Shown: in pieces, positions 3,257 through 29,013 of the stretch
Layout of the letters: every line of letters starts with the position of its first letter
Numbering within the stretch: the first letter of the stretch is position 1
DNA from: Promethearchaeum syntrophicum
GTDB taxonomy: Archaea > Asgardarchaeota > Lokiarchaeia > Sigyniarchaeales > Promethearchaeaceae
DNA length: 32,000 bases
Direction: 5' to 3'
NCBI RefSeq assembly: GCF_008000775.2
Contig: NZ_CP042905.2
Coordinates: forward strand, 2,160,001 to 2,192,000
Program-made: the position numbers and the translations under genes
Notes under the pieces: model-generated
What the model was told of the DNA's origin: nothing
Databases searched by the model: none
What the model saw: the letters and a program-made list of their open reading frames with translations, nothing else

Positions 3257-3748
3257 GTGAATAAACTGCCAACGAAAAGAATTAAAGTGCCGGTCAAAAA
3301 ACATGCCAAAGGAGAAAGTTTCTCTAAAGAACTTGAAAAATTCGGGCGTTATATTGTGGGGGTTTCATTAGAATCTCTAAAAACAGTGGGAAAATATGAT
3401 GCGTTAAATCGAACAAATGAATTCTACTTTAGGGTAAATTCGAGTGATGTGTTTAGAACAAGAGTTCCGAATAAAGGAAACATTGAACTCCGAGAAAATC
3501 AATCTTTTCTTTCAAAATCTGATAAGTTAACGTTATGGTCTGAATTTGTGAAATTTAAAAAAGAAGAAGAAAAAGTAATCGAAGTTGAGATACAACTCCG
3601 GGAAGAAGATCCAGGTTTGGATAAAGTATTAGCTAAGAAAAAATATAAAATTAAATGCCCCACCGCTACGAAATATGAGATTTTACAGAGTAAAGATGGA
3701 AAAACCAAAGCTAAATTAAAGATTTTCGCAAAAAAGACACTTTACTAA
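3257..3748 (+). CDS. hypothetical lysine-rich, predicted beta-rich protein; start codon uncertain
   Basis: 163-codon ORF with no internal Met. It begins with a GTG that is embedded in a GGTGA Shine-Dalgarno-like pentamer. A T7 run follows the stop. No recognisable enzymatic motif. Confidence 0.5.
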   Translation: MNKLPTKRIKVPVKKHAKGESFSKELEKFGRYIVGVSLESLKTVGKYDALNRTNEFYFRVNSSDVFRTRVPNKGNIELRENQSFLSKSDKLTLWSEFVKFKKEEEKVIEVEIQLREEDPGLDKVLAKKKYKIKCPTATKYEILQSKDGKTKAKLKIFAKKTLY

Positions 3749-6623: not shown

Positions 6624-7151
6624 ATGGCAGACTACGTATTGAAAATATGTTTACTCGGTGATGGAAATGTCGGAAAAACCTCTATCGTTTACCGATATAT
6701 TGAGAACCGTTTTAGTCGTGATTTTAAATCTACTCTTGGTGTAAATTTATTAAAGAAAAAAGTAATCTTAACTGAAGGAGAAAACGCTGGAAAGATCTGT
6801 TCCATCCAAATCTGGGATCTTGGGGGTCAAAACGCCTACAGAAAATTGCGTAAACTCTATTTGGAGGGATCTCAGGGAGCTTTAGTCGTTTTCGATGTCA
6901 CATCTCAGTCTAGTTTTGATCACCTGGATGATTGGATTGAATCACTTATAGAAATCCGTGGGGACAAAGTTCCGATGATTTTAATTGGAAATAAAATTGA
7001 TTTAGAAGCTAATCGGGTTATAAACGAAATGCAAGTGCAGAAATATGCGGACAAATATAATATGCCCATTAAATTTACGAGTGCTGCAACCGGTGAGAAA
7101 GTCGAAACTGCATTTATAGAATTGATCCAAAATATTATAGAAACAATCTAA
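6624..7151 (+). CDS. Rab-like small GTPase (Ras superfamily)
   Basis: G1 GDGNVGKT, switch I KSTLGV, G3 WDLGGQ, G4 GNKIDL, G5 TSAATG. Collinear with eukaryotic Rab over the whole length. GGAG RBS 7 nt upstream of the ATG. Confidence 0.9.
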   Translation: MADYVLKICLLGDGNVGKTSIVYRYIENRFSRDFKSTLGVNLLKKKVILTEGENAGKICSIQIWDLGGQNAYRKLRKLYLEGSQGALVVFDVTSQSSFDHLDDWIESLIEIRGDKVPMILIGNKIDLEANRVINEMQVQKYADKYNMPIKFTSAATGEKVETAFIELIQNIIETI

Positions 7152-7295
7152 TTGTTACAAATTTTTCTAATTATTTTCTTAAACGTTCGAGTTTATCCAG
7201 ATATACATTTTTTGGGATACATATTATCAAACTAAAAATTCTTAAGCGGAACAAACTAAATTTTATTTGTTGTAAGGTATTTAGATAGATGGAAC

Positions 7296-7305
7296 TTTTT
7301 TTTTT
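7296..7305 (+). terminator. oligo-T tract (T10) between the two GTPase genes; possible archaeal terminator
   Basis: T10 run within an imperfect GGAAC-T10/A7-TAAATTCC palindrome, about 145 nt after the first GTPase stop and 40 nt before the second start. Confidence 0.3.
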
Positions 7306-7344
7306 AAAAAAATAAATTCCACAAAATAATTAACGTGAAAAAAC

Positions 7345-7899
7345 ATGGCAGAAAATGAGTTCGCAAGCGATTTTATCTTCAAAATTTGCGTGATTGGTGA
7401 CGGCGCTACTGGAAAAACTTCTCTCATTAAAAGATTCACACAAGGATCTTTCAATAAAGATTATATTAAAACTCTTGGTGCGCAGTTTTCAAAATTCGAA
7501 AAAATTATGGAGATTGACGGAAAAGCCATTCGGGCGCGTCTCTTTTTCTGGGATATTGCAGGCCAATCAGAGTTTCGCTTCATGAGGCCGACCTTCTATA
7601 ACGGCGCAAAAGCGACCATTGTTGTCTTTGATTTAACTCGAAAAGAGACGTATGATAATATCCGGACATGGATTGATGATATCACTCAATATTGTGGAAA
7701 ATTACCTACTGTATGCTTTGCTAATAAAAGCGATTTAATAAATGAAGCAGAATTTGATGATAGCGATATAAAAAACCTTTCTAAGGAATTAGAATTCATG
7801 GAATATTATTTGACTTCTGCAAAAACGGGTAAACACGTTCAAGATGCTTTTAATGCAATCATTGATATATTAGTGAAGAAAGCTTTAGCAGAAGGATAA
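7345..7899 (+). CDS. Rab/Ras-like small GTPase (second paralogue)
   Basis: G1 GDGATGKT, switch I IKTLGAQF, G3 WDIAGQ, G4 ANKSDL, G5 TSAKTG. Confidence 0.9.
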   Translation: MAENEFASDFIFKICVIGDGATGKTSLIKRFTQGSFNKDYIKTLGAQFSKFEKIMEIDGKAIRARLFFWDIAGQSEFRFMRPTFYNGAKATIVVFDLTRKETYDNIRTWIDDITQYCGKLPTVCFANKSDLINEAEFDDSDIKNLSKELEFMEYYLTSAKTGKHVQDAFNAIIDILVKKALAEG

Positions 7900-7988
7900 C
7901 GCCTTAACAAAACTAGTTTTTGTTAAAGAAAATACATTTATAGTCAATTTATCTCGAAATTTATGAAAAAAAGGGGACAATAATTAAA

Positions 7989-8276
7989 ATGGGGTATCCT
8001 TTAATCTATTTTTTCTCAAGTCCATATTGTGCGCCTTGTAAAACTGTCGGAAAGATGCTTGAAGAAATAAATATCAGCCTTTTTGGTAATAAGCTCAAGA
8101 TAAAAAAGGTTGACATTGCTCAAGAATTTGAGTTAGCACAAAAATTTAAAATACTTAGTGTCCCCACTATTATAATTGGAGATCAAAGATTATCTGTGAT
8201 CATAGATAAAAATGAGTTGACTGACGCAATTTTGCAAGGATTCCTATCTTCGGTATCATACTCAGAAGATGAATAA
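7989..8276 (+). CDS. small thioredoxin/glutaredoxin-fold protein (CxxC)
   Basis: 95 aa. Active-site-like CAPC near the N-terminus and a cis-Pro region ILSVPTIIIG typical of the thioredoxin fold. Confidence 0.8.
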   Translation: MGYPLIYFFSSPYCAPCKTVGKMLEEINISLFGNKLKIKKVDIAQEFELAQKFKILSVPTIIIGDQRLSVIIDKNELTDAILQGFLSSVSYSEDE

Positions 8277-8360
8277 TAAATAAAAAGATATAAAAAAACT
8301 AAAAATAATATTAGAAAACGGAATGAAAGATAATAGAAAAAAAATGTTGAGGAATTACAA

Positions 8361-8846
8361 ATGAATCGTATTTTACTTGAACAAATGCTACATAAAATGA
8401 GATCTTTCCTGATAAAGGGGAAAAACATTGGAGATTTGAAAATTGGTGCTCTTTATGCCCTTGGGAATCAATTGGATGCCGTTTATTATTTCGTTGGTCA
8501 TGAATTGGGTTCTACAATAGAAACTGGAAGAGATCATATTGTTGATACTTCAATTTTGATTGAAACATTAAAGAATTTTTCAAAAAAATATCATATCGGT
8601 AATATGATTATAGACGAATACAATGATGAGCATATTACCTTTGATCTTGAGGATTGTCCCACATGTAAGGAAATTGAAGTACCATCCACTGAAATATCAC
8701 AAGGATTTTGCTCTTTTGAAGCGGGATTATTTGCCGGTCTAGTCGAGAAATTAACAGGAAAGCATTGTTTTGCCCAAGAATTAGAATGCAAACTCCAAAA
8801 TAAATCTCCAAATTGTAAATTTATGATTGTTATTCCTAAAGATTAG
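8361..8846 (+). CDS. V4R (4-vinyl reductase) domain protein
   Basis: C-terminal GFCSFEAGLFAGLVEKLTGKHCFAQELECKLQNKSPNCKFMIV matches the V4R signature (C.f.aG...G..e...g......E..C...G...C.F.i). GAGGA RBS upstream. Confidence 0.7.
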   Translation: MNRILLEQMLHKMRSFLIKGKNIGDLKIGALYALGNQLDAVYYFVGHELGSTIETGRDHIVDTSILIETLKNFSKKYHIGNMIIDEYNDEHITFDLEDCPTCKEIEVPSTEISQGFCSFEAGLFAGLVEKLTGKHCFAQELECKLQNKSPNCKFMIVIPKD

Positions 8847-8862
8847 GAGTAGGTAGAATAAA

Positions 8863-9111
8863 ATGAGTTCAGATGAAAATATAGTAGCCTATATATTATT
8901 AATTACCGATTCAGTAAATACTGAAGAGATATATAAGAAATTGAAATCAATAGAACAAGTTAAGGAAGTTCATATGATTTATGGGGATTATGATATTATT
9001 TTCAAGGTTGAAGTAAAGAATTTAGCGGAATTATCAACCTTTACCATGGATATACGGAAAAATTTCAATATTAAATCTTCATCAACATTAATAACTTTAG
9101 CCCAGAAATAA
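8863..9111 (+). CDS. stand-alone Lrp/AsnC-type ligand-binding (RAM) domain protein
   Basis: 82 aa. AYILLITD...VKEVHMIYGDYDIIFKVEVKNLAELSTF...SSSTLITL fits the AsnC_trans_reg beta-alpha-beta-beta-alpha-beta pattern without an HTH. It starts 16 nt after the V4R stop, with an AGGAG RBS. Confidence 0.7.
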   Translation: MSSDENIVAYILLITDSVNTEEIYKKLKSIEQVKEVHMIYGDYDIIFKVEVKNLAELSTFTMDIRKNFNIKSSSTLITLAQK

Positions 9112-9127: not shown

Positions 9128-9769
9128 TCATTCTAAAATATAGTGAATCATAGATTTGTATTTTCCATTTTTCAAAGCAATTAACTGCTCTTTTTCCATT
9201 TCTTCGATATATTTCAAAAGATTTTCCTGGGAGAAATTAGAATAGGTTTCGATTTCTTCTAACGCTAAAGATCCGTGTCTTAATAATATAAAAAGAATTT
9301 TTTTCTTTGGGAAATCTGATTCATGCCTGATAAACCAATCCATTGATTGTCTTATATCAATTTCAGTATTTTTAAGGCTGTTAACTTCATTGGCTAATTT
9401 GTTTAAAACCGCCTCTCTGGCTTTGAAAACAGATTGACTGGTTTTGAATAATCTCTCGATCTCCTCTAAAAGGTCATCTCCAAAGTGTTTGGAAACCACA
9501 TCGTTAATTAGACATAAAATATCCTTGAAATCTTCCGCATCTTCAAATTTATTTAAGATTAAGACCGTAACCTTTTGTAGTTCTTCGTTCCCTAAAGATA
9601 ACCCATTGAAATCTTCTTCCTTAATATTCATAATTCCGGGATTAAACGAATGACTGATTTGTAGAAGTTGCACAAAATTCACCGGAATGTCAAGATCTTT
9701 AGGATATTTTAAAGATATTATCCCACCTTCGTATTCATCCCAGTCAATTATAAATATCCCTTCAGGCAT
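9128..9769 (-). CDS. longin-like N-terminal domain / coiled coil / C-terminal winged-helix protein (hypothetical)
   Basis: ORF 9128..9778 starts at a GTG that lies inside GGTGA, so the ATG at 9769 (GGTGA-N5-ATG) is preferred. The N-terminal ~100 aa show a beta-beta-alpha-beta-beta-beta-alpha pattern collinear with sigma-adaptin/longin. A heptad-like helix lies in the middle. The C-terminus KKKILFILLRHGSLALEEIE...LIALKNGKY is wHTH-like. Confidence 0.6.
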   Translation of the reverse strand: MPEGIFIIDWDEYEGGIISLKYPKDLDIPVNFVQLLQISHSFNPGIMNIKEEDFNGLSLGNEELQKVTVLILNKFEDAEDFKDILCLINDVVSKHFGDDLLEEIERLFKTSQSVFKAREAVLNKLANEVNSLKNTEIDIRQSMDWFIRHESDFPKKKILFILLRHGSLALEEIETYSNFSQENLLKYIEEMEKEQLIALKNGKYKSMIHYILE

Positions 9770-9978
9770 TTTGTTCACCGAAATTGTAAATAATTAATCC
9801 AATTTTTATTAAATGTATTAAATGTAAAAAAACCTAATAATATTTATATATGTAATTTTGGAAATTTTTCCATTTTTTTTTATCCAAATCTCCTTTGGGT
9901 AGTAAAATTGAATTTATACTAAGTAATTCATAAATTTAGAATTTGAAATTACAGAAATAACTATGTCGGAAAAACAAA

Positions 9979-10272
9979 ATGCCATTATATTATGTATATA
10001 TCCTAAAATGTGAGAACATTAAGAATGGAAATGTAAGTCTCTATACGGGATCAACTCAAGATTTAATGAAACGATTTGAACAACATCGAAAAGGTGTTGG
10101 TGGAGCAAAGTATACGAGAGGAAAAAAACTTGAATTGGTTTATTTTGAGACCCATTTAACAAGAAGTGACGTGATGAAGCGGGAATATGAAATAAAAAGC
10201 TACACTTCTTCAAAAAAATGGGAAATTGTAGATGAATTTCAAAAAAAAATGGAGGATTCGAAATCTAAATGA
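9979..10272 (+). CDS. GIY-YIG nuclease-domain protein (UPF0213/Slx1-like small stand-alone form)
   Basis: YYVYILKC...LYTGSTQDLMKRFEQHRKG...REYEIK carries the GIY..YIG, R..H and E elements of the GIY-YIG fold. Confidence 0.85.
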   Translation: MPLYYVYILKCENIKNGNVSLYTGSTQDLMKRFEQHRKGVGGAKYTRGKKLELVYFETHLTRSDVMKREYEIKSYTSSKKWEIVDEFQKKMEDSKSK

Positions 10273-11156
10273 GTTTAAATTTATTCTTAAACAACTTCAA
10301 AACCTCAAGATATTCAGTTCTAATTCTTTTAATTGGTCTCCCTGCATCGGGAAAAAGTGTAATGGCTCAAAAACTAAAGAGTGAGTTAACAAATAAGCAT
10401 GGATTGAATAAAGTTTACATAATTGACACTGATATTATCCGATTTCGTCTTTTTGGAGCAGATTTTTGCCACACTAATGAAAAATCTGTGGTAGAAGAAA
10501 AAAATAAAGAGGTTTCTGACAAATTAAATCCGGGAAACATTATAATAGTTGATGATCTTCATTATTTAACATCAATGCGACATTATTTCTACGATTTGTG
10601 CAAGAAAAAAGGTGCAATATACATTCCAATTTATCTATCCACACCCATGTCACAATGTAAAAAATGGAATAAAAAGCGTGGATTACCAATTCCTCATGAA
10701 ATTATTGAGGAAATTGCTGCTAAAATTGATATCCCGGGCAAGAAATACCAATGGGATAGAACCCAATTAAATTTTGACCTCACTTCACAAAAAATAGATG
10801 AAAATGTTGAAGAATCGCTTCAACATATTGAAGAAAAATTAAAAAACGAATTTAATGTTTCATCTAAGAATCAATTTACCTTTAAAAATCAGACTTTTAA
10901 TGACCAGAAAATTAAAGACAATTCCTCATTTGATAAGGAATCTAGGATTATTATACACAAAATAATTACAAAAGATTATTCAGATGAAATTTTAACAAAA
11001 ATCGGAAAATATATCAATTTTTCATCATCTAATTTTACAAAACAAATTTCTTCGAAAAGGAAAAAATATGTAAAATGGTTAATCGGTCAAAAATCTCCGC
11101 ATTTAACAATCGAAGAATTTATAACTTTTTTAACAGAAACAAATACAAAATATTAG
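10269..11156 (+). CDS. pstK: L-seryl-tRNA(Sec) kinase (PSTK)-like P-loop kinase
   Basis: P-loop GLPASGKS. IIVDDLHYLTSMRHYF, IPHEIIEEIAAKIDIPGKKYQWD and DKESRIIIHKII are collinear with the archaeal PSTK sequence as I remember it (VDDTNYYNSMRR, IPNEVI...FDEPGKKYKWD, DKETRKIV). The ATG overlaps the GIY-YIG stop (ATGA). Confidence 0.7.
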   Translation: MSLNLFLNNFKTSRYSVLILLIGLPASGKSVMAQKLKSELTNKHGLNKVYIIDTDIIRFRLFGADFCHTNEKSVVEEKNKEVSDKLNPGNIIIVDDLHYLTSMRHYFYDLCKKKGAIYIPIYLSTPMSQCKKWNKKRGLPIPHEIIEEIAAKIDIPGKKYQWDRTQLNFDLTSQKIDENVEESLQHIEEKLKNEFNVSSKNQFTFKNQTFNDQKIKDNSSFDKESRIIIHKIITKDYSDEILTKIGKYINFSSSNFTKQISSKRKKYVKWLIGQKSPHLTIEEFITFLTETNTKY

Positions 11157-14564: not shown

Positions 14565-15305
14565 TCACGCCTTAAAAGGAGTTCCGGCATTTAATTCATA
14601 AATTTTACTTTCCTCTTCATTTTGGAGCTTGATTTCTTCAGGAGTTAATTTCCGAATTAATTCAGTTAATACTACCCGATTATAACTTATCAATATTCTT
14701 GGGATTAAGTCTTTAGCTAAATATGTTCCATCTGGGATCGATTCTTTTAGTCGATAAAGTTTGCGCTCTTTGATAATCTGACCAAGATATTCCTTATGAG
14801 TCTCTAAATAGCCATAAATATTATTTCCGTCGATTACCATCTCACGCTTATATCCATCTGGAAGACTTATTTTTTCGAGTAAAAGAACAATTTTTTCAAG
14901 GGTTAAGTTCTTTAAGAGTTTATCATCTTCAGCCGTTCCTTCATATGCTGGACCTGTCTGTTCTTCTTCAAAAATTTCTTCTTTTTCGAGACCTACCATT
15001 ATTTTAAATGGCAGAGTTTCATCATTTTGATCTACAGTATTTATTTTAATTGCTGGTCCAATCCTATCTCGGATAGAACTTGCCTTATTAGCTGCTATGA
15101 ACTTCATCCTGGTGGAAGCTTCGCTACCAGCCCATATAAATGATCGATAGGTTTCTGCATTGACAAAATAAAGGATAAGTTTTGGGTTAAGGATTTCGTA
15201 GAGTTTGACGCCTTCTTCGAGTTCCAGTTCTTCAAATTCGGCTTTTTCATCGTTTAATTGAAAAACTTGAATGGGATTTTTTTTTTCTTTGGTCATGGAA
15301 ATCAT
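14565..15305 (-). CDS. gelsolin/cofilin-like domain protein with uncharacterised C-terminal domain
   Basis: Residues ~10-105 (IQVFQL...LILYFVNAETYRSFIWAGSEASTRMKFIAANKASSIRDRIG...INTVDQNDETLPF) follow the gelsolin-repeat pattern (L..d.fil.....iy.W.G..as..ek..A...A......g.....v.eg.E...F). The C-terminal ~140 aa are unassigned. Confidence 0.6.
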   Translation of the reverse strand: MISMTKEKKNPIQVFQLNDEKAEFEELELEEGVKLYEILNPKLILYFVNAETYRSFIWAGSEASTRMKFIAANKASSIRDRIGPAIKINTVDQNDETLPFKIMVGLEKEEIFEEEQTGPAYEGTAEDDKLLKNLTLEKIVLLLEKISLPDGYKREMVIDGNNIYGYLETHKEYLGQIIKERKLYRLKESIPDGTYLAKDLIPRILISYNRVVLTELIRKLTPEEIKLQNEEESKIYELNAGTPFKA

Positions 15306-19908: not shown

Positions 19909-22551
19909 ATGGAAATTAAACAGAATCAAAACCCTACAATTATAAAAATAATAATTGCAGCAGTAATATCGATAGGTATGATTACAGCTTTTTCTATCCC
20001 GTTTGGAATGATTCCACCTCTTGGTAACTTATTGTTCCCGGGAGATGGGATATGGGATGTACCGACTGAAGTATCGGAATATGAAGTTGTGAAGGACTCT
20101 GCACTCTCTCATGACGTAGAAGTATTTCGAGATGAATGGGGAATTCCTCATATTTATGGTTATGGTGAAGAAGACCTAATGTTCGCGCTCGGATATGTAC
20201 AAGCACAAGATAGGATGATTCAAATGGACCTTGTACGGAGATTGGCACGAGGGCGTCTATCCGAAATTGTAGGTCCTGATGCACTTGACACCGATAAATT
20301 CAATATTCTTAAATTAGAAGAATATTGGGCTAATAAATCTGTTGAAAATTTACAAGCAAGCGAAGATCCACTATATAAATCAATTTATCAAATGCTTTTA
20401 CGTTATGCTGATGGAATAAATAAGTATATTGAAACTAATCAAAATAATAAGCCATTTGAATATCAATTTTTAGATGTGGAAATTGCTCCATGGGAAATTG
20501 TTGATACATTAGTTTACGCAAAATACATGTCGGAATATTTTACATGGAGTTACAAAGATATGCAAAGATATGAAAACATGATGATTTTAGGAAGTGATAA
20601 TTATACTGAACTATATGGTTTTCCTGCTCCATATCAAATTCCCGTTACCCCAAATTATGGAGAATATGACGATATTTCTATACCTTCCAGTGAATTCAAT
20701 CCGCCTAGTTCATCTAACACAGATGAAATCAAAATGCCATCTGATAATTCAGAATTTGTCGAACCCCTACCTATGAATTTTATTTCATCCTTTTTAGATG
20801 GTTTACAAGGATTTCCCCAAGAAATACAACGAATGGAACAAGAATACATTATTGGATCAAACAATTGGGTCATTTCTGGAAATAAAACTTCCTCTGGTAA
20901 ACCTTTACTTAGCACTGACATGCATTTAGGGTTGACATTACCGGGAATGTGGCATGAAGCACACCTTGTTGACATAACCCCTGGTGCGGATCTAAATTTA
21001 TATGCTGTATTTGTTCCCGGAGTCCCTCTTCCTATTGCAGGTCATACCGATTATGTGGGGTGGGGAGAGTCGATTGCCGCCTTTGATTTAATCGATTGGT
21101 ATTATTATAATGGCATTAATGATACGCATTATGAATATAAAGGTGAAGCAAAAGCTTATGATATCATGGTAGAGTCCATCCCGATAAAAGGACAAGAACC
21201 TGAAGAATATATAATAAAATCCACCGTGCATGGTCCTGTTTTTACAGATTTAGTACCAATGTCAGAGGACTTTTCGGAAAATGTTATTGCTTGTAAATGG
21301 ACTAGTTACAATATAACTTTAGATTTTTTGGCTCTATACGGTTTTATGCATGCCAAAAATGTTTATGAATTCGATGACGCGATAAAATTCATGGATCTTC
21401 TCCCTCTTAATATAGCTTTTGGAGATGTTGAAGGAAATATCGGAATCCGTCCAAATGCTAAAGTACCAATTAGAAATGATACAGATATCCCCTCTTGGCA
21501 TCCTGGAGGTGGAGATATGCCTTATAATGGTTCGAAAGGAGAAGGTGAATGGATAGATTACTTAGATTTTGAGGATCGTCCTTATTGTATCAACCCCGAG
21601 CAAGGATTCTTATCATCAGCAAACCAATATATTGCAGGACCTGATTATCCAAATGTTGAAGTTATTAATGATGGAGGTGCTGTCGGATATCGCGCTCGTC
21701 GGATAAACAATTTACTTGCAAAGGCCACCGAATTTACAGTAGAAGACATGAAAACCATGGTACTTGATATTTATAGTGTACGTGCAGGTAATTTCACCCC
21801 ATATTTGATAGATGCGTTGGATACATTAATATCTAAAAGTGATATTCAAAAAGCTGCTTACAATGAATTACAAAATTGGGATTATTATATGGATAAAGAT
21901 TTAGTTGCACCCTCTCTCTATCATGTCTGGATTGAAGCATATTTAGAATTAACTTTTCAAGATGAACAAACCAATATGGGTAGTTTTAGTAGACCTTCTT
22001 ATGCAGTATTAGAGTATTTAACAAAGAATAATTCCGATTCCAAATGGTTTGACAACATTTCTACTCCCGAAATTGAAAACCGGGATGATATAATATTGGA
22101 TACTTTCAATATTGTTCTTGAAGGGTTAGAGGAATATTATGGAACGAATAATGTTTCTGCATGGAAATGGGGAGAAGTTCATCAAATACGGGTTGACCAT
22201 TTAATGAGTCTCCCTGGATTAGGTTTTGGACCCTATCCGATCTCAGGTGAAGCATATACGATAAATCCAAGTTACGGATCCAATTTTAATAACGGAGTAA
22301 TTAGTACTAGTTATTCCCGCGCTGGTGCTTCAGAACGTATTATTGTCGATTTTAGTAATATGAATAATAGCGTTTCGATAATTCCCTCGGGAGAAAGGGG
22401 TATTTCTAGTTCAGTTCATTATACGGATCAATTGGAAATGTGGTTAAGAGGAGAATTTCACCCACAATATTTCGATGCAAAGGATCCGGAAACTATCCAG
22501 AATTGGGCGAATATCGAATCTATTATATTATTTAAGAAGGAGGGAGATTAA
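19909..22551 (+). CDS. penicillin/acyl-homoserine-lactone acylase family Ntn-hydrolase (peptidase S45), N-terminally membrane-anchored
   Basis: RDEWGIPHIYG, FALGYVQAQDRMIQMDLVRR, and the self-processing/nucleophile region IGSNNWVISGNKTSSGKPLLSTDMHL. N-terminal hydrophobic helix IIKIIIAAVISIGMITAF. The ATG at 19909 is preceded by GGTGA-N5; the track start at 19900 is the GTG inside that SD. Confidence 0.85.
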   Translation: MEIKQNQNPTIIKIIIAAVISIGMITAFSIPFGMIPPLGNLLFPGDGIWDVPTEVSEYEVVKDSALSHDVEVFRDEWGIPHIYGYGEEDLMFALGYVQAQDRMIQMDLVRRLARGRLSEIVGPDALDTDKFNILKLEEYWANKSVENLQASEDPLYKSIYQMLLRYADGINKYIETNQNNKPFEYQFLDVEIAPWEIVDTLVYAKYMSEYFTWSYKDMQRYENMMILGSDNYTELYGFPAPYQIPVTPNYGEYDDISIPSSEFNPPSSSNTDEIKMPSDNSEFVEPLPMNFISSFLDGLQGFPQEIQRMEQEYIIGSNNWVISGNKTSSGKPLLSTDMHLGLTLPGMWHEAHLVDITPGADLNLYAVFVPGVPLPIAGHTDYVGWGESIAAFDLIDWYYYNGINDTHYEYKGEAKAYDIMVESIPIKGQEPEEYIIKSTVHGPVFTDLVPMSEDFSENVIACKWTSYNITLDFLALYGFMHAKNVYEFDDAIKFMDLLPLNIAFGDVEGNIGIRPNAKVPIRNDTDIPSWHPGGGDMPYNGSKGEGEWIDYLDFEDRPYCINPEQGFLSSANQYIAGPDYPNVEVINDGGAVGYRARRINNLLAKATEFTVEDMKTMVLDIYSVRAGNFTPYLIDALDTLISKSDIQKAAYNELQNWDYYMDKDLVAPSLYHVWIEAYLELTFQDEQTNMGSFSRPSYAVLEYLTKNNSDSKWFDNISTPEIENRDDIILDTFNIVLEGLEEYYGTNNVSAWKWGEVHQIRVDHLMSLPGLGFGPYPISGEAYTINPSYGSNFNNGVISTSYSRAGASERIIVDFSNMNNSVSIIPSGERGISSSVHYTDQLEMWLRGEFHPQYFDAKDPETIQNWANIESIILFKKEGD

Positions 22552-22552
22552 C

Positions 22553-22975
22553 ATGAGCGAAATGAATCCATCAGTTGACTTTTTTAATAAATATTCTCCC
22601 TATTTTGCCACTTTATTGACTTTTATATTATCAATGCTATTTACATTAGTCCCTTTTTGGCCTTTAACATTTGTTGCTGCTATTTTTGGAGGATTCTTAT
22701 GTAAAAATATGAACTGTGGGGCATTAAGTGCGATGATTGGAATCATAATATCATGGGGAATTTATATTATTATTGAAGTTATAGGAAATAGGACCAACAT
22801 CTTATTCGATCAATTAGGAATTTTAATAACTGGCTCATCAGGATTCGGATTTTGGCTAATTTTTATTGTTCTAATTGTTGGGGCTATTATAGGATTATTA
22901 GGCGGAACAATCGGCTCAGGAATCAGAATATTAATAGAACCAAAATTTCTTTCAAAAAAAAATCATCAAAGATAA
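22553..22975 (+). CDS. small integral membrane protein (about 4 TM helices), hypothetical
   Basis: The ATG at 22553 lies 1 nt after the acylase stop and is preceded by GGAGGGAG. The 140 aa are dominated by hydrophobic, glycine-rich segments. The upstream extension of the track ORF (22475) overlaps the acylase and is unlikely. Confidence 0.6.
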   Translation: MSEMNPSVDFFNKYSPYFATLLTFILSMLFTLVPFWPLTFVAAIFGGFLCKNMNCGALSAMIGIIISWGIYIIIEVIGNRTNILFDQLGILITGSSGFGFWLIFIVLIVGAIIGLLGGTIGSGIRILIEPKFLSKKNHQR

Positions 22976-23052: not shown

Positions 23053-25215
23053 TTATATAAGCCTATTCCCGCATTCTGTACAAAATAATGACTTTCCATC
23101 TGTAATTGGTGCACCACAATTGGTACAAAACTTGAATTTTGCTTTTTGATTTGAAAAATTATCGAATTCATCAAAAATGAAAGAATTGGAGGAACTTGAT
23201 GTTTCTGGTGGGCTATTATCACTCCCAAAAGTTCCTATTGAAGGATTTGTGCCATATATTTGAAAACTACTTGGGGAGTCTCGAATTGGAACTCTCGGCT
23301 TTGGTTTATAGAATTTTTTCCTCCAGATTATAGCAGAAATTGATAAAAATCCAATAACTCCAAGAGTAATAGAAATTCCCCGCATCATAGGATTGCTTAT
23401 CGATTTCAAAGGATTTGTATTTCTGTCGATTTCCTCTTTATCGGTATATTGATCATCATCTGTATCCATATCTAATGGGTCCGTTCCATAAGAAAATTCT
23501 TCAGAATTGATAAGTCCATCACCATCAGGATCGTCAGTTGCATCATCAACTAGCGGATTTGTTCCTTTAAAATATTCCCAACCGTCAGGCATTCCGTCAT
23601 AATCCGTATCTAAAGATAAAGAATCCGTCCCAATTTGAAGCTCAATATCATCGGATAACTCATCATTATCCCAATCTGAATCCCAGAGATTAAAACCAAT
23701 TTCAAATTCATAAGCATCAGAAAGTGAATCACCGTCAAAATCACCACTATAAGATAATCCTAAAGGAGTTAATTCTATGGATTCATTATCAATTTCTGAA
23801 AAACCATTATTAGTTTGAATTGCTTTAAAAGTAATACCCGAAATATCATGACCCGTTAAACTTGAAGCAAATAATTTTTGTTGCCAACCAGCGCTGTTTT
23901 GAATGTTTTCCTCTATTTCGGATCTCACTATTGTTTGTTCTGTAAAATCATAATATACTAATATTAATTTTCCTACTCCAAGACCGCTAAGAGCAAATTC
24001 AATTTGTACTTGGTCATTTCCAGATGGAATAACCGAATTTATCTTCCCATTCGGTTCAAGTATTAATTCACCATCAATTCCATCATATTCCTCAGGATGA
24101 TGAGTAAATCCTAAATAAGTTGACCGATCGACTGTAGAATTATAAATCGCTTCAAAATTTTCTTCATATGATATCACTCCATCATTATTAATATCTGAAT
24201 TATTATCCCACGAATTCAAAAAACTATAAGAAAATACTCCATTTTCACGATACGGATCTTCCAATGAGTATTCTGAACTATTACTTGCTGATATTACATA
24301 TCTATCCGTTTGAGCAAAATCTCGAGCAACGCCTCCACTATGGCAAGAATCCAACAGTGTAACGACCTGACCAGGAACTTCATTAAAATAAGAATTTAGC
24401 GTAGATCCATTTAACCCTGAGTCCAATCCATCATGTGTATTTATGCAATATGAATCTTCCCAGTAACCTACTTCAACTAAATCGATTTCAAATCCCCACT
24501 CGGTTATTGAATAATCAGTGTACAAATTAACATAGATGTCATCACAAGGTATCCAACCAGACCATAAATCGGTATAATCATTATCATATAAAACATAAGC
24601 AGGCCATCTGTCATCATTATCTCCAATATAAATTTCATCAATTTCATCTTCAAGTTCAATTTTTGTAAAGTGAACCCTCATTAGTTCTGCCCCTGGATGA
24701 GAATAATGCCAATAATCATCCATATTATTAGAATATGGATGATTGCTTGCTACATTCCAGCTATATTGAATTGAAGATATTTCTTGAGATCCATGCCCTG
24801 AATAAGAAAAGAATAACACATCATTTTCATTCATCACATCGGAAAAATTGCTAATAGCATAAGAAATATCAGGGATAGTCACCTCAGAATCTATTAATTT
24901 AACGATATTTGAATCAGGTATATGGTAGTTATCTAGGATAAAGTTATATATCTCTTCAGCATCATCATCACAATAGCTTAAATCATTAATAGACCCGGGA
25001 TAATCACTCACTCCACAAATAATTGCATAACCTTCTCTTGGATCTTCGATTGATGAAGATTTTACCTCACCTTCAAATAAATTGTTTCCCTTAAGTTTCT
25101 CACTAATTGTTAAATTACTTTGAATAAATAAAAAGGGAGAGATAAAATTTAATGCTAATATTGAAATAAGAACTATTTCTCTTACAGAAACTTTAGTTTT
25201 ACTCATTTTTATCAT
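23053..25215 (-). CDS. membrane-anchored caspase-fold (peptidase C14-like) protein with CUB-like insertion, beta-sandwich region, thrombospondin-type-3-like Ca-binding repeats, TM helix and C-terminal zinc ribbon
   Basis: N-terminal signal/anchor. YAIICGVSDYPG...DDDAEE...VLFFSYSGHG (catalytic His 141) and VVTLLDSCHSGG (catalytic Cys 291). Five DxDxDGxxDxxE-like repeats (aa ~490-600). TM helix ISITLGVIGFLSISAIIW. CTNC-x12-CTEC zinc ribbon at the C-terminus. An alternative start exists at 25206. Confidence 0.8.
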   Translation of the reverse strand: MIKMSKTKVSVREIVLISILALNFISPFLFIQSNLTISEKLKGNNLFEGEVKSSSIEDPREGYAIICGVSDYPGSINDLSYCDDDAEEIYNFILDNYHIPDSNIVKLIDSEVTIPDISYAISNFSDVMNENDVLFFSYSGHGSQEISSIQYSWNVASNHPYSNNMDDYWHYSHPGAELMRVHFTKIELEDEIDEIYIGDNDDRWPAYVLYDNDYTDLWSGWIPCDDIYVNLYTDYSITEWGFEIDLVEVGYWEDSYCINTHDGLDSGLNGSTLNSYFNEVPGQVVTLLDSCHSGGVARDFAQTDRYVISASNSSEYSLEDPYRENGVFSYSFLNSWDNNSDINNDGVISYEENFEAIYNSTVDRSTYLGFTHHPEEYDGIDGELILEPNGKINSVIPSGNDQVQIEFALSGLGVGKLILVYYDFTEQTIVRSEIEENIQNSAGWQQKLFASSLTGHDISGITFKAIQTNNGFSEIDNESIELTPLGLSYSGDFDGDSLSDAYEFEIGFNLWDSDWDNDELSDDIELQIGTDSLSLDTDYDGMPDGWEYFKGTNPLVDDATDDPDGDGLINSEEFSYGTDPLDMDTDDDQYTDKEEIDRNTNPLKSISNPMMRGISITLGVIGFLSISAIIWRKKFYKPKPRVPIRDSPSSFQIYGTNPSIGTFGSDNSPPETSSSSNSFIFDEFDNFSNQKAKFKFCTNCGAPITDGKSLFCTECGNRLI

Positions 25216-27846: not shown

Positions 27847-29013
27847 ATGATGGAAGAAAATCTTGAAAATTGGATAATTTTATTAGATTGCACAAAATCC
27901 ATGAATAGAGAAGATTTTCCTCCAAATAGATTCCAAACTGCATTAAGTGGAATCAAAATCTTTATTGAAGAAAAATCTAAGGCATTAAAGAAAGTTAGAA
28001 TATCCATAATCACATTTAATAAAAAAATTTCAGTTGTTTCTGAGTTGACTGATGATGTTGATTCAACCATTGAATTAATTTCAAATAAAAAATTTAAAAA
28101 AATGAATCTCTCATCAGGTTCAATAAATATGTTGGATAATGCATTAAATGAAGCATTAGAGATTCTTGGTCAACAAATTCAAAATATTTCTGGATTTTAT
28201 AATTGTATATTGTTAATTTCTGATACGGAAGATCTTAATATTTCGGAAAAAACCCAAAAAAAAATCAAAGGATTACAAATTTCGATAAATATTATAACAT
28301 TTTCACTTGAGAAAAATAACGCTAATATGTATTTTCCATTGAAAGCTCAACATTTTACTACTAAACAAGATCTTTTGAATGGAATGAAGGAACTTGCCTT
28401 ATTAAAAAAAAAAGAAAAAAATAATGCTCAACATTTTTCAGAAATAATGTTAGAACATGGAAAAAAAACTCGCGATTTCATGGAAGAAATTGCTTTAAAA
28501 TTGAGATATCCAACACTTGATGAATTAATCAAATTTAATAAGAAATCAAGAAAAATCAATTGCCAAATATGTTTCAGCAAAATTTCCCCCATTAAAAAAT
28601 ATTCACTTTATAAAACTGGAAGATTATGCCCCCATTGTGGGACGCCAATGCACCTTCATTGTGCGGGAACATGGGCTCTTAAATCATCAGAACACAAAGG
28701 TTTATTCAGATGCCCATATTGTTATACTCTTCTAAAAATTCCGGGAGCAATTTTAAATGGTCTTAATAAAAAAAGCAATAAAAAAGAAGGATCAGAATCT
28801 AAAAAACAATTAGTTAAAATGATTGTTATTGGACCTGAAAAACTTAAACAGAAATATTCTGATTGCTTGTATTGTTTTAAACCAATAAAAAATGTTTCAT
28901 TTCAGAAAACTTTTCAATGCAGTAATTGTAAAGCATATTTTCATAAAAAATGCCTGGAAGAGATGTATAAATTAGATAAAAAATGTTTAAATTGCAATGG
29001 AAATATTGTTTAG
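27847..29013 (+). CDS. von Willebrand factor A (vWA) domain protein with two C-terminal C4HC3 RING/PHD-type zinc fingers
   Basis: N-terminal WIILLDCTKSMNREDFPPNRFQ (a MIDAS-like DxTxS; it resembles the Rpn10 vWA segment IDNSEWMRNGDY.PSRFQ) and LLISDTED. Finger 1 spans aa 239-292: C-x2-C-x18-C-x2-C-x4-H-x2-C-x16-C-x2-C. Finger 2 spans aa 340-383: C-x2-C-x14-C-x2-C-x4-H-x2-C-x10-C-x2-C. Confidence 0.75.
   Translation: MMEENLENWIILLDCTKSMNREDFPPNRFQTALSGIKIFIEEKSKALKKVRISIITFNKKISVVSELTDDVDSTIELISNKKFKKMNLSSGSINMLDNALNEALEILGQQIQNISGFYNCILLISDTEDLNISEKTQKKIKGLQISINIITFSLEKNNANMYFPLKAQHFTTKQDLLNGMKELALLKKKEKNNAQHFSEIMLEHGKKTRDFMEEIALKLRYPTLDELIKFNKKSRKINCQICFSKISPIKKYSLYKTGRLCPHCGTPMHLHCAGTWALKSSEHKGLFRCPYCYTLLKIPGAILNGLNKKSNKKEGSESKKQLVKMIVIGPEKLKQKYSDCLYCFKPIKNVSFQKTFQCSNCKAYFHKKCLEEMYKLDKKCLNCNGNIV

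Follow-up and report, generated by a model that had tools for sequence, protein, structure and literature searches.

A 32,000-nt stretch of the Promethearchaeum syntrophicum MK-D1 genome (contig NZ_CP042905.2, positions 2,160,001 to 2,192,000; hereafter the window) encodes DSAG12_02518, a protein of 213 amino acids (aa) that is very probably a member of an Asgard-only superfamily, in which a long helix and a single winged helix come after a longin domain of the NPRL2/DENN type, the order of NPRL2 and NPRL3 in miniature. The longin-helix-winged-helix combination is uncharacterised experimentally but has precedents. On the basis of the fold, the family, a hairpin motif, the heptad pattern of the helix and synteny, all observed or computed, we tentatively propose a dimeric regulator of the one-component type, built like CRP/FNR with the longin replacing the cyclic-nucleotide barrel, and infer its dimerisation, the identity of its partner and DNA binding. 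The features of the gene and its product are the following.

9128 to 9769, minus strand: coding sequence of the 213-aa protein DSAG12_02518 (WP_147663620.1), stop codon included, start set by the N-termini of homologues
9775 to 9779, minus strand: GGTGA, resembling a Shine-Dalgarno sequence, 5 nt before the ATG at 9769
9419 to 9769, minus strand: NPRL2-like longin domain, aa 1-117, from the AlphaFold2 domain model, Foldseek and hhalign to the NPRL2 longin profile
Longin elements in that domain (DSSP, domain model): β1 4-11, β2 15-22, α1 30-42, β3 46-50, β4 55-61, β5 66-72, α2 78-94, α3 98-117
9722 to 9742, minus strand: motif W10-D11-x3-G15-G16 in the β1-β2 hairpin, with D11 and G15 invariant throughout the superfamily
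9323 to 9478, minus strand: 52-residue helix, aa 98-149, its first third being longin α3 and the rest an amphipathic heptad stalk
9416 to 9418, minus strand: codon of the invariant R118, at a core (a/d) heptad position where the helix exits the longin domain
9146 to 9319, minus strand: C-terminal winged helix, aa 151-208 (H1 154-165, H2 170-177, H3 181-193, wing 197-206; AlphaFold2 predicted local distance difference test, pLDDT, about 90)

The translated open reading frame (ORF) 9128-9769 is 100% identical to DSAG12_02518, annotated as hypothetical. A preliminary description of this DNA had given a 213-aa product at these positions, strand unstated; the gene lies on the minus strand, and all peptides quoted there are found in its translation. 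Although the longest ORF call reaches upstream to a GTG at 9778 (216 aa), 213 aa is the right product because the homologues all begin MP(E/K/L)GI and GGTGA precedes the ATG at 9769 by 5 nt; GGAG-type elements occupy the matching place in orthologous loci. Homologues (n=57) are about 212 aa long and 42-89% identical, and every named one is from Promethearchaeota/Lokiarchaeia. A scan of one genome per GTDB species found eight loci of the family, one per genome, all in Lokiarchaeia. To judge from sequence conservation, the gene is real and under selection. The literature and supplements consulted do not mention the protein or its locus tag.

The N-terminal domain was assigned from two AlphaFold2 models. 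The full-length model, built on a 38-sequence alignment (pLDDT 85.6), has strands at 2-11, 15-22, 46-51, 54-61 and 66-72, helices at 32-39, 78-94 and, uninterrupted, 98-149, and then helices at 154-165, 170-177 and 181-193 and strands at 197-200 and 203-206. The domain model, covering aa 1-118 and built on 40 diverse sequences (pLDDT 92.5, predicted template-modelling score 0.85), shows the order ββαβββαα, which is that of longins. In a Foldseek search of the PDB, its top 50 matches are exclusively longin, roadblock or SRX proteins, with weak E-values (≥5e-3) and template-modelling (TM) scores of 0.5-0.6. The list is headed by DENND1B, ζ-COP and GATOR1, and includes DENND1B and DENND1A bound to Rab35, GATOR1 chains, LAMTOR subunits, AP sigma subunits, TRAPP longins, Ykt6, Sec22b, VAMP7 and the MK-D1 roadblock structure 7yh1. 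Judged on the model, with its five-stranded antiparallel sheet and its matches to solved structures, the domain is of the longin/roadblock fold superfamily. The preliminary description had claimed a longin-type fold, had suggested structure prediction with Foldseek, and had named a fold other than longin, roadblock or SRX as a refutation; the predicted element order and the uniform match list bear the claim out.

Profile comparison by hhalign puts the domain with the NPRL2-type longins. The alignment of the NPRL2 longin profile with that of the family is in the expected register and covers 114 columns (score 25.3, P=9.7e-4, probability 22%). The reversed NPRL2 profile scored 12.9, the best of 30 column shuffles 15.0, and a sigma-adaptin profile 15.9 (P=0.06, 17 columns, out of register), the last being of low diversity (88-100% identity) so that its comparison with NPRL2 is not fully symmetrical. 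Single-sequence alignments to NPRL2 and C9orf72 fell in the expected register without reaching significance; the usable signal comes from the NPRL2 profile only. The likeness to sigma-adaptin noted earlier therefore holds at the level of the fold and fails at that of the profile, where NPRL2-type longins are favoured. Pfam and NCBIfam scans of the target and 54 relatives gave no family spanning the domain, and phmmer and hmmsearch with the protein and two family profiles returned only noise from PDB sequences. Pfam NPR2 (PF06218) did not match the target at E≤1, so that membership in NPR2/NPR3 was not found by sequence. We call the domain NPRL2-like, the term of Liu et al. for Asgard longins, and do not file the protein in the NPR2 family.

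The breadth of the superfamily was revealed by an exhaustive hidden Markov model search with the first 150 residues, which, of 1.84 billion representatives, retrieved 75 with E≤1e-3. Outside the 212-aa family there are same-length proteins with 25-37% identity, stand-alone proteins (115-136 aa), and proteins in which the domain is fused to TackOD1 (Pfam 3e-25), a helical region that is TPR/HEAT-like or several winged-helix-like segments, the last in relatives of 350-430 aa. Those with names come from Promethearchaeota, Helarchaeota and Hodarchaeota. The search for the same architecture in other proteomes, as suggested in the preliminary description, thus yielded same-length relatives and longin fusions to winged helices, the named ones all Asgard. 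Asgard archaea have, according to Liu et al., families of NPRL2-like longins, among them fusions to two-component domains (10.1101/2020.10.19.343400), and the distant relatives found here are longin fusions of that kind. Their asCOG catalogue lists "NPRL2-like longin + HTH" proteins, HTH standing for helix-turn-helix, in this genome (10.1101/2020.10.19.343400; PMC9834061 supplement). These share with the target the phylum, the longin type and a longin input fused to an HTH, TPR or two-component output; DSAG12_02518 is a candidate member of these groups, or else of the row "HTH domain; Uncharacterized protein".

Eukaryotic NPRL2 and NPRL3 consist of an N-terminal longin and two or more C-terminal winged-HTH repeats (PMC3747258). 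Together with the asCOG entries they speak against the lack of precedent implied in the preliminary description, whose author knew of no characterised protein with this combination. The target resembles them in the order longin then winged helix, in a whole-domain profile match, in an aromatic-x4-G hairpin at the same place and in Foldseek matches to the GATOR1 chains 9o5d_D (TMq 0.61) and 8fw5_C (NPRL3). It differs in its size (213 aa against 380 and 569 aa), in having one winged helix instead of two or more, and in the long heptad helix between its domains; it lacks the TINI/INT region, an equivalent of the Arg78 finger, a Pfam NPR2 match and a known DEPDC5 partner.

In the superfamily alignment D11, G15 and P23 are invariant, and G4, W10, H40, S58, L72 and E76 are nearly so. 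The hairpin spacing W-D-x3-G-[G/P/A] equals that of C9orf72, W33-D34-x3-G38-P39, and hhalign pairs WD with WD and G with G (P=0.035, not significant alone). The C9orf72 motifs are typical of the longin family of GTPase-activating proteins (GAPs) and are also present in Asgard longins (2025 survey, PMC12290439). G15 is followed by G in the 212-aa family, and in relatives by P, A, V, T or M; relatives with WDxxxGP occur. The likeness to the longin of the C9orf72-SMCR8-WDR41 GAP complex is limited to this short motif; unlike C9orf72, the target has no DENN domain, and no SMCR8-like arginine-finger partner was identified. R78, the invariant arginine finger of NPRL2, faces a gap in the target, which is without the insertion that carries it, and the superfamily alignment has no conserved Arg at the corresponding place before β5. 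Because the finger is absent, a stand-alone GAP role is unlikely, whether the protein is a regulator or the GTPase platform considered below.

The helix of aa 98-149 follows a single best heptad register, with 14 core positions at 101, 104, 108, 111, 115, 118, 122, 125, 129, 132, 136, 139, 143 and 146, occupied in that order by L, I, F, S, F, R, L, L, V, L, E, I, M and F. Family-wide, strong hydrophobic residues make up 0.73 of the a/d core positions and 0.23 of the others. One continuous register was found, as expected from the heptad-like central helix noted earlier. Residues 118-150 are conserved on a par with the longin core, with A117, R118, V121, K124, N134 and D138 invariant in or next to them, and are presumed to serve as a functional surface, the simplest candidates being a stalk for dimerisation and a face that binds a partner.

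The C-terminal domain has a canonical and confidently modelled winged-helix topology. Scores of the target, with the family cut-offs in brackets, are 16.6 bits for pRN (20.8), 13.8 for MarR (24.6), 12.4 for TrmB (25.6) and 29.4 for ORF80 (95), and the E-values are 0.008 for pRN and for ANAPC2, 0.05 for MarR and 5.5e-7 for ORF80. Topology and sub-threshold matches agree with the C-terminal winged HTH that had been claimed. The winged helices of relatives score better (TrmB 6.9e-8, HTH_24 7e-6, MarR 3.6e-5), and TrmB was recorded also for a more distant (tier-2) relative of the same length. The MK-D1 domain carries a KKK arm and a lysine-rich wing. Three Harpocratesius-type orthologues of 268-291 aa (P0044, P0045 and P0046) have a low-complexity insertion of 55-80 residues inside the winged helix (alignment columns 223-299), either between H2 and H3 or in the wing; it holds a second H3-like segment and was not used as evidence.

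The surroundings of the gene in the window are the following.

6624 to 7151, plus strand: Rab-like small GTPase WP_147663611.1 (Pfam Ras 1.9e-46), with orthologues only in L001/L017, L003 and L014
7345 to 7899, plus strand: Rab-like small GTPase WP_147663613.1 (Pfam Ras 7e-41), the most consistently linked GTPase
7989 to 8276, plus strand: thioredoxin with a CAPC motif (Pfam), kept in the conserved block
8361 to 8846, plus strand: Cys-rich V4R protein DSAG12_02516 (WP_147663616.1; Pfam V4R 2.2e-7, V4R part of MsvR 2.3e-11)
8863 to 9111, plus strand: stand-alone Lrp/AsnC ligand-binding (RAM) protein of 82 aa (WP_147663618.1; Pfam AsnC_trans_reg 1.2e-14), convergent with the target
9770 to 9978, no strand: divergent intergenic region shared with the GIY-YIG/KTI12/CDC48 operon, the divergent arrangement being kept in the tier-1 loci and in a tier-2 relative
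9862 to 9875, within the divergent intergenic region: palindrome TGGAAAAATTTCCA

Gene order was compared in 14 distinct orthologous (tier-1) loci, this window and 13 others. A V4R orthologue lies at most two genes from the target in 13 of them, and the GTPase at 7345-7899 has an orthologue (64-91% identity) in 11, the other three contigs ending first or lacking it; V4R, thioredoxin and Rab-like GTPase are syntenic in 11/14, and the RAM gene is adjacent in 10/14. In L019 the entire right-hand (GTPase/V4R) block is missing. On the divergent side stand genes for a GIY-YIG protein, a KTI12-like protein and CDC48. This left-hand block, with TatD where present, is kept in 13 of the 14 loci, that is, in all whose upstream flank was recovered, and also beside a tier-2 relative of 36% identity (L008/L009); a distant relative (L006/L007) shares no neighbours. 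The GTPase/V4R link is real within Lokiarchaeia and inseparable from general gene-order conservation, and the divergent pairing goes deeper. As to the two neighbouring GTPases of the preliminary description, both are Ras/Rab-type and nearby, but the target is on the other strand, at a distance of 1.2-2.5 kb, and three genes intervene.

V4R proteins belong to the TRAPPC3/Bet3 superfamily, and V4R domains of the MsvR type are thioredoxin-regulated. The cysteines of WP_147663616.1 comprise a CPTC motif and four more. The stop codon of the RAM gene is 16 bp from that of the target; a split Lrp/AsnC gene, with the winged helix of the target as one part and the RAM protein as the other, was rejected, the genes being convergent on opposite strands. 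On a GC-rich contig (L004), where the neighbourhood is otherwise entirely different, a 29%-identical relative of the target (8001-8702, plus strand) adjoins a RAM-only gene of 78 aa (7531-7767, minus strand) whose product is 37.5% identical to the RAM protein of the window. The GIY-YIG nuclease gene (97 aa) overlaps the start of the KTI12/PSTK-like kinase gene by 4 nt, and CDC48 comes next (9979-11156 of the window, plus strand); across Lokiarchaeia the trio is usually preceded by TatD, which is missing there in MK-D1 and close relatives.

According to Tran et al. (2024), GTPase genes of MK-D1 do not, as a rule, share operons with roadblock, longin or TRAPPC3 genes, so that GTPases cannot be matched to their regulators (PMC10933270). 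Their alignment of MK-D1 Rab-like GTPases includes both GTPases of the window, and neither the target nor this V4R protein; the two V4R proteins of MK-D1 that they analysed do not include WP_147663616.1 (PMC10933270). The run of five plus-strand genes from 6624 to 9111 contradicts the general statement that such genes do not cluster.

Considering that: (i) the longin sits at the position of a receiver domain in fusions to TackOD1, to multiple winged helices and to TPR, in agreement with the two-component fusions of Liu et al.; (ii) the winged helices of relatives match DNA-binding families (TrmB, HTH_24, MarR); (iii) the closest full-length structural analogues are CRP/FNR regulators, and (iv) the divergent gene pair is deeply conserved, we favour, with the reserve stated above, a regulator model. 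The KKK arm and lysine-rich wing of the MK-D1 winged helix and the palindrome found upstream in 4/13 loci also speak for it. In the model, two chains would dimerise by way of the longin sheet and of the heptad stalk (aa 118-149). A protein partner, most likely the Rab-like GTPase of the conserved neighbouring block or else the stand-alone V4R or RAM sensor proteins, would dock on the acidic face of the longin, where the W10-D11/G15-G16 hairpin and R118 lie. Binding of the partner would shift the placement of the two C-terminal winged helices, whose DNA target would be the divergent promoter region that the gene has in common with the TatD/GIY-YIG/KTI12/CDC48 operon. Conserved divergent gene pairs often consist of a regulator and its target, and the region 9770-9978 presumably holds the promoters of both divergent genes. 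The best Foldseek matches of the full-length model are CRP/FNR/NtcA regulators (E about 1e-3), with which it shares the order β-rich N-terminal sensor, long dimerisation helix and C-terminal winged HTH; unlike the β-barrel of CRP, which binds cyclic nucleotide monophosphates, the sensor of the target is a longin, and the sequences have no similarity. In asCOG the HTH part is placed in category K (10.1101/2020.10.19.343400; PMC9834061 supplement).

Several observations weigh against DNA binding and against the likeness to CRP. The CRP matches are architectural only (TM 0.26, root-mean-square deviation 24 Å), and all family matches of the target winged helix lie below the curated cut-offs of Pfam/NCBIfam. 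Within the protein, conservation is lowest in the winged helix, whose majority frequency is 0.47 (longin core, 0.72), and the recognition helix is the most variable segment (0.40). Its net charge has a median of -1 and a range of -7 to +5, within a strongly acidic protein whose longin domain has a median charge of -12. A variable and non-basic winged helix is unusual for an orthologous DNA-binding regulator, and the winged helices of NPRL2 and NPRL3 are protein-binding modules. A search upstream of the orthologues in 13 loci gave no operator motif common to them, and its one candidate is not robust: an ATCC-N3/4-GGAT palindrome occurs in four (0.04 expected from shuffles), three of them close relatives, at -44 relative to the ATG in L005, L019 and L020 and at -109 in L001.

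Degenerate ...T(A/T)AGGAT... versions of the palindrome occur in several other loci. The target and GIY-YIG genes start with the identical 11 nt AACAAAATGCC (9765-9775 and 9973-9983), a perfect inverted repeat with a separation of 197 nt, which is probably a coincidence, both proteins beginning Met-Pro.

The same properties of the winged helix, neutral to acidic and far less conserved than the longin core and the helix, fit a GTPase platform that does not bind DNA, the main rival explanation, which we consider possible though doubtful. The protein would be a minimal NPRL2/NPRL3-like subunit, with a longin dimer docking the Rab-like GTPase, possibly together with V4R, in a role of the guanine nucleotide exchange factor, GAP-cofactor or effector type, and the winged helix would make protein contacts as in GATOR1. 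In structure the closest longins are those of DENN and GATOR1, and in profile comparison that of NPRL2; the alignment of the full-length model with NPRL3 (8fw5_C) spans 243 columns, and the spacing of the W-D-x3-G-[GPA] hairpin matches the WD/GP motifs of longin GAP complexes. The conserved block supplies the GTPase orthologues and V4R, fusions of longin with V4R and of longin with GTPase exist in Asgard archaea, and longin/roadblock dimers are general GTPase platforms (PMC3747258). Points against it are the missing arginine finger, with no conserved Arg in its place, the replacement of the P of the GP motif by G in the 212-aa family, the opposite strands of target and GTPases, the absence of the GTPase/V4R block beside tier-2 relatives and in L019, where the other flank is retained, and the lack of a Pfam NPR2 match. 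Coupling of the GTPase state to transcription, or a role as a scaffold, as had been suggested in the preliminary description, is plausible. A broader version, a proto-eukaryotic signalling module in which the NPRL2/3-like protein reads the state of the Rab-like GTPase, V4R and the amino-acid-binding RAM protein feed in redox or nutrient signals and the output is transcriptional or scaffolding, seems rather improbable; if true, it would represent an archaeal forerunner of nutrient and trafficking control of the GATOR1 or TRAPP type with prokaryotic one-component wiring.

Two further explanations start from other longin proteins. A HEAT-repeat gene stands in place of the RAM gene in two tier-1 lineages, immediately downstream of the target and co-oriented with it, overlapping it or separated by 10 bp: in L012 (6649-8106, plus strand) it encodes 485 aa with HEAT_2 (4e-22) and Adaptin_N just under the cut-off (7.8e-9), and in L003 (8651-10111, plus strand) it is fragmented. 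Together with ζ-COP and the sigma subunits of AP-1, AP-2 and AP-3 among the Foldseek matches, this would fit a small-subunit-like partner of a HEAT/adaptin-N-like solenoid, with the longin in the role of sigma-adaptin or ζ-COP. We hold this to be quite improbable, since the sigma-adaptin profile gave noise, Pfam Clat_adaptor_s did not match, a HEAT gene is missing in the window and the remaining tier-1 loci (0/12 including the window), and sigma subunits have nothing that corresponds to the extra helix and the winged helix. Likewise, an R-SNARE-like protein devoid of an anchor, as suggested by the R-SNARE analogy of the preliminary description, would use the central helix as a SNARE-like motif with R118 as zero layer. 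The heptad stripe is continuous over 14 positions, the invariant R118 is in the core with eight layers C-terminal to it, and the longins of Ykt6, Sec22b and VAMP7 are among the fold matches (TM 0.45-0.55 for R-SNARE longins and sigma-adaptin/ζ-COP), the SNAREs also having a heptad helix after the longin. Inspection for a zero layer thus found an Arg at a core position, but the N-terminal half of the stripe, the five layers from -5 to -1, is longin α3 (residues 98-117), packed on the longin sheet in a confident model. Neither SNARE nor Synaptobrevin of Pfam matched even at E≤1, the longin groups with NPRL2/DENN and not with SNARE longins by profile and Foldseek ranking, and there is neither a transmembrane nor a lipid anchor: as had been noted, the sequence ends in a soluble winged helix (...KSMIHYILE). 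The SNARE reading was rejected on the grounds of profile, anchor and layers, and is close to refuted.

Asgard genomes encode dozens of small GTPases and dozens of longin, roadblock and V4R proteins. The DSAG12_02518 locus is an exception to their dispersal, since one Rab-like GTPase, V4R, thioredoxin, RAM and an NPRL2-like longin-winged-helix protein stand together across cultured and uncultured Lokiarchaeia. It offers a small and concrete set of soluble proteins from two cultivated organisms, with a candidate pairing of the longin protein with a particular Rab-like GTPase and V4R protein. The longin-then-winged-helix order of NPRL2/3 exists in a minimal archaeal form, and if the winged helix binds DNA, the regulator proposed here would be the first link between Asgard signalling parts of the GTPase type and gene regulation.

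Elsewhere in the window, a 388-aa protein (27847-29013, plus strand) has a von Willebrand A domain, a RING finger (zf-RING_2 3e-5) and an Ssl1-like match, and is possibly a ubiquitin-system component of eukaryotic type. A caspase domain (Peptidase_C14 2e-12) is found in a 720-aa protein (23053-25215, minus strand) that also has a bacterial TSP3 repeat and, at its C-terminus, a zinc ribbon. No Pfam match at E≤1e-4 was obtained for three ORFs of 163-246 aa, at 3257-3748 (plus strand), 14565-15305 (minus strand) and 22475-22975 (plus strand). At the position corresponding to 14565-15305, L. ossiferum has a gene of about 250 aa, also without a Pfam match, beside the inositol monophosphatase gene, and this suggests conservation of the ORF.

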